This document shows positions 33,027 through 33,466 of a DNA stretch of 61,012 bases, in pieces. Origin of the DNA: Candidatus Omnitrophota bacterium (GTDB taxonomy: Bacteria > Omnitrophota > Omnitrophia > Omnitrophales > JACROU01). Location: the NCBI GenBank assembly GCA_016214265.1, contig JACROU010000078.1, positions 1 to 61,012 of the forward strand, written 5' to 3'. The notes under the pieces are model-generated. The model worked only from the letters and a program-made list of their open reading frames with translations. It was not told the DNA's origin and did no database searches. How positions within the stretch are numbered: position 1 is the first letter of the stretch; each line of letters begins with the position of its first letter. The translations under genes were made by a program, and so were the position numbers.

Positions 33027-33061
33027 AACCGTGAACCGTGGTCCGTGGACAGTGAACCGTG
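33027..33061 (+). repeat. five 7-mer units, left arm of a 30-bp inverted repeat
   Basis: AACCGTG AACCGTG GTCCGTG GACAGTG AACCGTG. Confidence 0.92.
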
Positions 33062-33066
33062 AATTG

Positions 33067-33426
33067 ATGAAGATACAAAGCTACAAGGATCTCAATGTTT
33101 GGAAAAAGGGGATAGAAATAGTAAACCTTGTTTATGATTTGTCAGAAAAATTTCCGAATCAGGAAAGGTTTGGTTTGATATCTCAAGTGCAGCGTTCGGC
33201 CGTTTCAATCCCTTCTAACATTGCAGAAGGTTTTTCTCGGCAGCATACAAAAGAGTATCAGCAATTCTGTTACATCGCGCTTGGTTCTTGTGCGGAGCTG
33301 GAGACTCAAATGATAATCGCGAAATTTCGCGGGTTTGTAGAGAAAGAAACATTCGCCAAGTTAGAGGAATTTTTGAATCATGAGAGTAGGATGTTGGAGA
33401 ATCTAATAAAAAGCTTAAATCGTTAA
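33067..33426 (+). CDS. four-helix-bundle protein (23S rRNA IVS protein / Avd-like family)
   Basis: SYKDLNVWKK, FPNQERFGLISQVQRSAVSIPSNIAEG, ALGSCAELETQ. Confidence 0.93.
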   Translation: MKIQSYKDLNVWKKGIEIVNLVYDLSEKFPNQERFGLISQVQRSAVSIPSNIAEGFSRQHTKEYQQFCYIALGSCAELETQMIIAKFRGFVEKETFAKLEEFLNHESRMLENLIKSLNR

Positions 33427-33466
33427 CGGTTCACTGTCCACGGACCACGGTTCACAATCCACGAGT
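33426..33466 (-). repeat. 7-mer array, right arm of the inverted repeat
   Basis: 33426-33455 is the exact reverse complement of 33031-33060; two degenerate units follow. Confidence 0.92.

Follow-up and report, generated by a model that had tools for sequence, protein, structure and literature searches.

The window, the whole stretch of 61,012 nucleotides analysed here (contig JACROU010000078.1 of a Candidatus Omnitrophota bacterium), carries in an SOS operon, between a small conserved gene (orf83) and dinB, a protein-coding gene enclosed by two inverted arrays of 7-nucleotide units; gene and arrays together are called the cassette throughout. The enclosed gene, denoted IVP (33067–33426, plus strand, 119 aa), was recognized as an open reading frame (ORF) with matches to the profiles PF05635 (23S_rRNA_IVP) and TIGR02436. 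The 5' arm (33027–33063, plus strand) consists of about five heptamers of the types GTGAACC, GTGGTCC and GTGGACA, and the 3' arm (33423–33463, plus strand) is the mirror-image array, in which an imperfect extra unit extends the repeat to 33463. A genome-wide scan of the source genome (G000, a 2.3-Mb assembly; other G numbers denote further genomes and L numbers denote loci) places an exact 30-nt inverted core at 33031–33060 and 33426–33455 with a spacer of 365 nt, and an inverted-repeat search reports the same pair as 33-nt arms (33031–33063 and 33423–33455) that are 97% complementary with 359 nt between them. The order of the variants, GTGAACC GTGGTCC GTGGACA GTGAACC, is mirrored between both arms, and Tandem Repeats Finder describes 33027–33063 as an array of period 7 with 5.3 copies.

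The three-unit pattern GTGNNCNGTGNNCNGTG matches 13 times in the window, where shuffles give an expectation of 0.01. Among inverted repeats no more than 1.5 kb apart in the assembly, the cassette pair ranks third in length, and no other 7-periodic pair has a spacer above 40 nt. Arrays of period 7 number 52 in this genome, and those of periods 5, 6, 8 and 10 number 2–5. With the 30-nt core exact, the variants mirrored and chance excluded, the description in the first-pass annotation of exact reverse-complement arms set tightly around the ORF is borne out. Across 32909–33555, a second sequencing run yielded a contig identical to the window. In the contig of the deepest run we noted a C>T change at 33455, the outermost base of the 3' arm, which in RNA converts a G-C pair to G·U. 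Contigs of the four DNA runs, all from one study, contain neither a cassette-skipping joint nor an empty-site allele, an outcome that we treat as neutral.

The cassette does not have the make-up of a transposon or a miniature inverted-repeat transposable element (MITE): no transposase, integrase or nuclease linked to it was found among the window ORFs and Pfam profiles, the arms differ among copies in one genome, and inspection of the arm ends by eye revealed no target-site duplication. Nor does it resemble an intrinsic terminator, as the loop spans 365 nt and the sequence past 33455 has no T-run. The sole match in an Rfam search of ten cassette loci, to sR1 (E 0.46), is a chance one.

The IVP protein matches PF05635 with an E-value of 1.1e-37 (129 bits, cut-off 33.8), TIGR02436 with 3.7e-35 (120.5 bits, cut-off 24) and PDB 2GSC, the solved structure of XCC0516, with 1.1e-23. 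The R-x3-S-x3-N-x2-E motif of the family, described in the accessible part of PMC3936711, is present as R43, S47, N51 and E54, the last two of which are invariant across 21 aligned sequences. Six pairs of family members give dN/dS ratios of 0.02–0.16. By these sequence comparisons, the cassette encodes a four-helix-bundle protein under purifying selection. The assignment made in the first-pass annotation to the protein family of 23S rRNA intervening sequences (IVSs) therefore stands on PF05635, TIGR02436 and 2GSC; the homology to Avd claimed alongside it is weak, since the Avd profile NF033474 scores far below its cut-off (E 0.004, 17.5 bits against 80) and gives no equivalog assignment. A genome profile search found no other PF05635 gene in G000, and PADLOC returned no match for this protein or for orf83. 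The GC content of the gene is 0.38, with 0.44–0.50 in its neighbours. Its ATG lies 3 nt past the stem and lacks a Shine-Dalgarno sequence, and its stop codon overlaps the 33-nt 3' arm.

Folding of the RNA of 33015–33475 yields a minimum free energy (MFE) of −157.3 kcal/mol (z −8.3 against 100 shuffles), and the 30-bp stem is present in both the MFE and the centroid structures. The genome encodes RNase III (C101:31601–31975); no large-subunit rRNA match was found in the G000 assembly.

Packaging and joint relocation of PF05635 genes and their arms

PF05635 matches occur in 29 of the 41 genomes of the order, G000 among these, with up to eight per genome. In the 28 copies taken from the order, the gene is mostly preceded by a short-repeat array and followed by the reverse complement of that array, with a unit that differs by locus, and the stop codon frequently lies within the downstream arm. 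For a wider view, a scan of species representatives gave at least 595 relatives among the 600 candidates listed, on the basis of one motif, and the best 80 loci, which span about 20 phylum-level labels, were used. Flanks of 160 nt were given an ungapped inverted-repeat score (IR score), with 147 windows shifted by 900 nt as controls. The score reached at least 13 in 44 of the best 80 loci and at least 11 in 62; the maximum among the 147 controls was 12, and 136 of them scored 9 or less. Pooling the 80 named loci with the 28 from the order gives scores of at least 13 in 58/108 and at least 11 in 79/108, so that the flanking inverted repeats of 58 loci lie above every shifted control. The pooled medians are an arm of 25 nt, a mismatch of 7.7% and a loop of about 415 nt. 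Additional copies behave similarly, 13 of 20 scoring at least 13, and cassettes on plasmids of cultured cyanobacteria score 31 (Nostoc edaphicum) and 22 (Geminocystis). The best period of the flank is 7 in 58/108 upstream and 54/108 downstream flanks, compared with 13/206 control windows, and it is 8 in 5/108 upstream flanks.

Both neighbours are co-oriented with the PF05635 gene at 72/108 loci, and where the upstream ORF is co-oriented, its stop codon lies in the left arm or no more than 10 nt from it in 44 of 70 cases. The base composition of the 5' arms (G 0.32, C 0.14) was considered as a sign of strand polarity relative to the gene and then dropped, because a hairpin of the form X-loop-rc(X) is identical on both strands and the skew is thus uninformative on gene orientation.

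These comparisons across many phyla indicate that a stem-plus-gene anatomy with a locus-specific unit is the usual packaging of the PF05635 family. Three components of it were already known, namely rRNA IVSs with this ORF and, in one, heptameric repeats; PF05635 genes scattered through operons; and heptamer arrays together with their inverted pairs. In a literature search that covered sources other than subscription journals and supplements, no paper stated a family-wide rule of enclosing inverted arrays of 7–8-nt units that move with the gene.

The arms follow the protein phylogeny. On a quick IQ-TREE protein tree (a length filter of 90–150 aa left out 8 of the 108 proteins), near relatives have a common unit and even a common period, with clades for CGTG-type units (the window, L031 and L037), TAAGNNN, CGGTTTT and two 8-mer types. 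Nearest protein neighbours lie at a unit distance of 2.60, where shuffled labels give 3.49 ± 0.13 (0/2000 as low; 75 loci), an association that weakens below about 60% protein identity. In several close pairs the surroundings do not follow. At L070 and L084 the proteins are 90% identical and the arms alike in unrelated flanks, and the homology block begins within the upstream array and extends beyond the downstream arm. Other close pairs in unrelated flanks are L085/L104, L008/L071 and the window against L031 and L037, its nearest relatives, which carry CGTG-type units at other loci. Within one genome each PF05635 copy has its own unit, and in syntenic pairs the arrays expand, shrink and swap variants. 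As near protein relatives have a common unit despite unrelated flanks, these sequence comparisons show that the arms accompany the gene both in inheritance and in relocation; matching cassettes in unrelated flanks, such as L070/L084, also back the mobility that had been proposed for the window cassette.

Several loci have features of their own. On plasmid pNe_5 of Nostoc edaphicum (L144), the cassette lies between two ribonucleotide-reductase subunit genes, antisense to both, and its TAGGGAG-type arms match over 34 nt. On plasmids gamma and alpha of Nostoc sp. PCC 7120 (L142 and L143), one protein accession is found directly past the 3' end of an ISL3 transposase gene in each case, with the downstream heptamer array kept, the upstream arm missing and an IR score of 7. 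At L003, L005 and L030 (G009 and G015), an additional conserved hairpin lies past the upstream arm and ahead of the start codon, where CCCTCC(ACGAA) can pair with a GGAGGG Shine-Dalgarno sequence about 25 nt downstream; judged from its sequence, this hairpin would sequester the Shine-Dalgarno sequence within the cassette.

Gene-less hairpins and the host operon

Heptamer hairpins that hold no gene are also present in the window. Two imperfect ones belong to the GTGNNCC unit family, at 19782–19865 in the nuoD|nuoH spacer and at 55694–55752 inside an 867-aa open frame (54585–57188). The latter leaves that frame open; the ORF has no Pfam match and may be two genes joined by a stop-free insert or may have received an in-frame insertion. 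A further array, CGTGGAC in 3.7 direct copies (28702–28727, plus strand), occupies the first codons of a 205-aa ORF and has no inverted partner (best partner score 5). Over 28696–28730 it forms codons 2–11, and the residues that follow resemble a lipoprotein signal peptide; the open frame upstream of the cassette ATG would encode a peptide resembling this one. Of the gene-less copies listed in the first-pass annotation, those at 19782 and 55694 are thus hairpins of the unit family, if imperfect ones, and that at 28699 is a direct array and not a hairpin. The repeat search also found a gene-less hairpin of a different heptamer (CGAATGA / TCGAATG type) at 48015–48095.

Short-loop heptamer hairpins, about 20 in number and from several unit families, stand right after stop codons, some of them followed by a T-run or adjacent to a tRNA gene. 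Arrays of TAAGNNN give 94 matches in G009 and 77 in G008, and at L139 (G009:C9:35500–41200) a TAAGNNN hairpin stands in each spacer of hrcA-grpE-dnaJ. A widely spaced TAAG pair in G009:C9, considered as a cargo-bearing element, proved to be two adjacent intercistronic hairpins. Gene-less hairpins may derive from cassettes: the cassette unit agrees with the dominant gene-less unit in G000 and partly in G009. It fails to do so in G008, where the units mismatch, and in G001, which has such hairpins with no PF05635 match.

The site between orf83 and dinB can be followed in relatives. The gene order in the window is a yhcG-like nuclease gene, lexA, orf83, the cassette and dinB, all co-oriented. The string begins with a YhcG/DUF1016 PDDEXK nuclease (31096–32169, plus strand; PF06250 1.5e-45, PF17761 6.6e-45), which also matches the PADLOC candidate system PDC-S02 (E 1e-126). 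Its 3' end overlaps by 4 nt the start of lexA, the SOS repressor gene (32166–32750, plus strand; Peptidase_S24 4e-31, LexA_DNA_bind 1.4e-16), and because of this overlap the nuclease may be under SOS-operon control. The orf83 gene (32774–33025, plus strand) has no Pfam or NCBIfam match, and its stop codon ends 5 nt upstream of the inverted repeat. The gene for the Y-family DNA polymerase IV, dinB (33472–34746, plus strand; IMS 8e-49, IMS_C 2e-19), starts with a GTG at 33472, 16 nt past the stem; the G001 orthologue has its ATG start at the aligned position. No sigma-70-like promoter was found on the plus strand between lexA and dinB. Matches to orf83 occur in 6 of 61 genomes, G000 among these, and at L113 and L115 the gene is again flanked by lexA and dinB; a further locus from the metagenome scan, L118, was rejected as spurious, with only 21 residues matched. 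In the sister genus (G001, 94% complete, no PF05635 match), the orf83|dinB spacer contains a gene-less imperfect hairpin of another heptamer (GAAGTCA type), and in the more distant G005, orf83 is followed directly by dinB with neither hairpin nor gene. The site therefore has three states, the cassette (G000), a gene-less hairpin (G001) and nothing (G005), the last being the empty-site operon that the first-pass annotation had proposed to look for.

Repeats of other kinds are distinct from these hairpins. A 34-nt perfect palindrome with the core CCAGGTTCATGAACCTGG occurs at 48 sites in the assembly, among them 26965–26998 and 52444–52477, with a relative in tandem/inverted form at 38196–38256; it is an element like the repetitive extragenic palindrome (REP) and not a heptamer hairpin. 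The only match to a Y1 transposase (PF01797) in G000, at C35:3452–3784, is bracketed by a 28-nt inverted repeat (C35:3224–3251 and 3878–3905) that contains the GGTTCCTGGAACC palindrome, and the locus C35:3224–3905 looks like a REP-associated tyrosine transposase (RAYT) with its REPs. The only reverse transcriptase (RVT_1) match, on contig C58, looks group-II-intron-like by eye at its N-terminus; the heptamer arrays near it lie inside the coding region and not around the gene, and they were set aside. The window ends in a 195-nt tandem repeat (60608–61012, 2.1 copies, 87% identity) that continues past its end.

Comparison with rRNA intervening sequences and other structured repeats

ORF-bearing 23S rRNA IVSs are known from Leptospira as well as from Coxiella. 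The accessible text of PMC4990558 describes in helix 45 of Coxiella 23S rRNA an IVS with an S23p ORF, a 28-bp terminal stem in which RNase III cuts have been mapped, and, immediately before the ORF, tandem heptameric repeats that vary in number by strain. To the extent covered there, the window cassette is alike in the protein family encoded in the loop, in a stem of about 28–30 bp made of terminal inverted repeats, in the tandem heptamers of the stem beside the ORF and in a poor or absent Shine-Dalgarno sequence. There are also differences. The host transcript in the window is a protein-coding operon and no rRNA helix is interrupted, so that by position, outside any 23S or 16S rRNA gene and between orf83 and dinB, the cassette is not an rRNA IVS even though it has the long stem and the heptamers of one. 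The Coxiella ORF is reported in the same text as decaying and untranslated, unlike the PF05635 ORFs considered here, which are under purifying selection. Excision by RNase III has been demonstrated for the Coxiella IVS, and for the window cassette it would follow by analogy. The cassette has the anatomy of rRNA IVSs and probably works likewise.

The arms have counterparts among intergenic heptamer arrays, a class to which the cyanobacterial short tandemly repeated repetitive (STRR) sequences also belong. The accessible parts of PMC4692102 and PMC4679880 report GGGAATC arrays and inverted pairs between Xanthomonas genes and TAACTGA arrays in Beggiatoaceae, Microcystis and Bacteroidetes, respectively. 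As described there, these arrays resemble the cassette arms in having 7-nt units near start or stop codons, a capacity for convergent stem-loops and a lineage-specific unit and copy number; they differ in being gene-less, and a G-quadruplex or translational role has been ascribed to them. Within the literature that was searched, no link between heptamer arrays and PF05635 or a loop-held gene was found.

Nucleic-acid binding has been attributed to the four-helix-bundle pentamer. Avd, of the diversity-generating retroelements (DGRs), belongs to the same four-helix-bundle superfamily as the window protein, and PF05635 is the commonest Pfam next to DGR reverse transcriptases according to the accessible part of PMC10053308; unlike the avd gene, the window gene has no adjacent reverse transcriptase and no template or variable repeats. 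Like REPs and bacterial interspersed mosaic elements (BIMEs), MITEs and integron cassettes, the cassette belongs to a population of short structured repeats between operon genes in which gene-less and autonomous-looking forms coexist, and it shares with them a promoterless ORF tightly bracketed by a structured site. It differs from all of these in the lack of a linked RAYT, transposase or integrase and in arms made of locus-specific tandem 7-mers, and the integron attC is one-sided, unlike the two arms of the cassette.

Proposed processing, rival explanations and meaning

We consider it probable that the orf83|dinB spacer holds a free-standing IVS-type cassette in an mRNA, with the PF05635 gene in the loop of a hairpin built from 7-nt arrays. 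This explanation rests on the Coxiella IVS precedent, the predicted 30-bp stem and the RNase III gene of the genome. The likeness to IVSs already put forward in the first-pass annotation is strongly backed by sequence comparison, as most homologues have the stem-plus-gene anatomy and the Coxiella IVS is alike. The cassette, which probably lacks a promoter of its own, would be co-transcribed with the operon, and its RNA is predicted to form a perfect duplex of 30 bp with the 360-nt ORF looped out. RNase III would cleave the duplex in the manner known from 23S rRNA IVSs, freeing the mRNA of the four-helix-bundle protein as a stem-capped piece and parting the lexA-orf83 RNA from the dinB RNA. Since the ATG lies so close to the stem and lacks a Shine-Dalgarno sequence, translation of the enclosed ORF probably needs the stem to be opened or cut.

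Several points weigh against the IVS-type explanation. An ATG abutting the stem, with no Shine-Dalgarno sequence, is among them, as is the apparent lack of translation of the homologous Coxiella ORF in the accessible text of PMC4990558. Anatomy is not uniform, with 29/108 loci scoring below 11, and the 80 named loci are a biased sample of PF05635, chosen by similarity to the window protein and one motif. Mismatches in the stems of 58 loci, read as sense RNA, comprise 33 G·T/T·G and 41 A·C/C·A (p 0.42) and so display no G·U preference; the complementarity may for this reason be maintained at the DNA level, and as an alternative the arms could be kept up by template switching and slippage. Gene-less heptamer hairpins far outnumber cassettes and are present in G001, where PF05635 has no match, and G008 has 77 TAAG-array matches with none of its six PF05635 copies flanked by TAAG. 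As gene-less hairpins are the more numerous form and are found also in G001 and G008, the arms are possibly a host element and not part of the cassette.

The last point leads to a different history, which we regard as doubtful, in which intercistronic REP-like heptamer hairpins are native to these genomes and the gene landed in the loop of one, much as helix tips are where rRNA IVSs are found, the arms being target and not cargo. It accounts for the distribution of GTGNNCN arrays, found at 13 places in G000, of which just two are cassette arms, and at none in the sister genomes G001 and G002; for the gene-less hairpin of G001 in the very same orf83|dinB spacer; for the 94 TAAG-array matches of G009, with one hairpin per hrcA-grpE-dnaJ spacer; for the units of G008; and for the 70–75 inverted GGGAATC array pairs of Xanthomonas, described in the accessible part of PMC4692102 with no link to the PF05635 gene. 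What it does not explain is that near protein relatives keep their unit, even an 8-mer period, across hosts and unrelated flanks, that the copies in one genome all differ in unit whereas gene-less hairpins are dominated by a single one, and that the L070/L084 homology block takes in the arms. The relocation of the whole unit, together with arrays that expand and contract between orthologous loci, the heptamer number that differs among Coxiella strains (in the accessible text of PMC4990558), the strand-symmetric mismatch spectrum (33 against 41) and the upstream stop codons within 10 nt of the left arm (44/70 loci), as insertion predicts, would all suit an element that acts as DNA, its arrays serving as terminal inverted repeats or single-stranded hairpins for transposition, recombination or templated copying, with complementarity upheld by template switching in quasi-palindromes and by slippage and with the RNA stem incidental. 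This we think unlikely, as the window locus has no linked transposase, integrase or nuclease and no target-site duplication seen by eye, the only reverse transcriptase and Y1 transposase matches are on other contigs, and a spacer of 365 nt is unfavourable for cruciform extrusion.

Operon punctuation is a role that the arms themselves could have, the hairpin insulating translation or transcription between orf83 and dinB, or stabilising the mRNA, with the gene as passenger in a domesticated element. An array whose period is not a multiple of three and whose unit contains a stop, as the window unit does with TGA, shuts all three frames from either side; periods are nearly all 7 or 8, the 5' arm closes all frames in 17/58 loci and the 3' arm in 6/58, and gene-less hairpins stand directly after stop codons, several with T-runs behind them. 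Yet an equal share of 5' arms (17/58) contains no stop at all, the G005 site has no element of any kind, the window 3' arm has no T-run behind it, and the strong purifying selection on the enclosed gene argues that it is not a mere passenger, all of which makes this role improbable in our view. We see practically no room for chance similarity or an assembly artefact. The source is metagenome-assembled and several contigs begin near heptamer arrays, but the second-run contig is identical, shuffle and shift controls exclude chance, and the same anatomy is present in complete genomes and plasmids of cultured strains. A broader proposal, also speculative and in our estimate unlikely to be right, makes the pentamer the trans-acting factor of hairpin elements that lack a transposase: it would recognise the periodic stem, be it RNA or single-stranded DNA, and, as Avd does, bring in a polymerase or nuclease to copy, move or extend it, so that rRNA IVSs, mRNA cassettes and the gene-less heptamer hairpins, which number in the thousands, would be one very widespread element in autonomous and derived forms. 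If true, it would also cover the excess of 7-nt repeats that bacterial genomes show and that has had no explanation. The model of an autonomous copy with cognate gene-less ones fits G000 (CGTG-type arrays at 13 places and around its sole copy) and in part G009 but fails for G008 and G001, and it was retained in this speculative role alone.

To return to the IVS-type cassette, its interest lies in the breadth of the family. PF05635 is large, with members in rRNA IVSs, DGRs and operons. We know of no account of the origin of rRNA IVSs, which have been without one for decades. The common stem-plus-ORF anatomy and the relocation of whole units tie them to the free-standing cassettes, and these sequence comparisons suggest a general cassette, with rRNA IVSs as one of its landing sites. 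According to the accessible part of PMC3936711, PF05635 genes are scattered through operons, cas operons included. The cassette looks like a widespread selfish element. The PF05635 family is now connected to the long-noted heptamer repeats and inverted heptamer pairs of bacterial genomes. Any operon that hosts a cassette thereby acquires a testable RNA-processing hypothesis, which in the present case concerns an SOS operon just upstream of its error-prone polymerase, and culturable carriers are at hand in Nostoc edaphicum (pNe_5), Geminocystis NIES-3709, Adhaeretor mobilis and Bosea sp. OK403.

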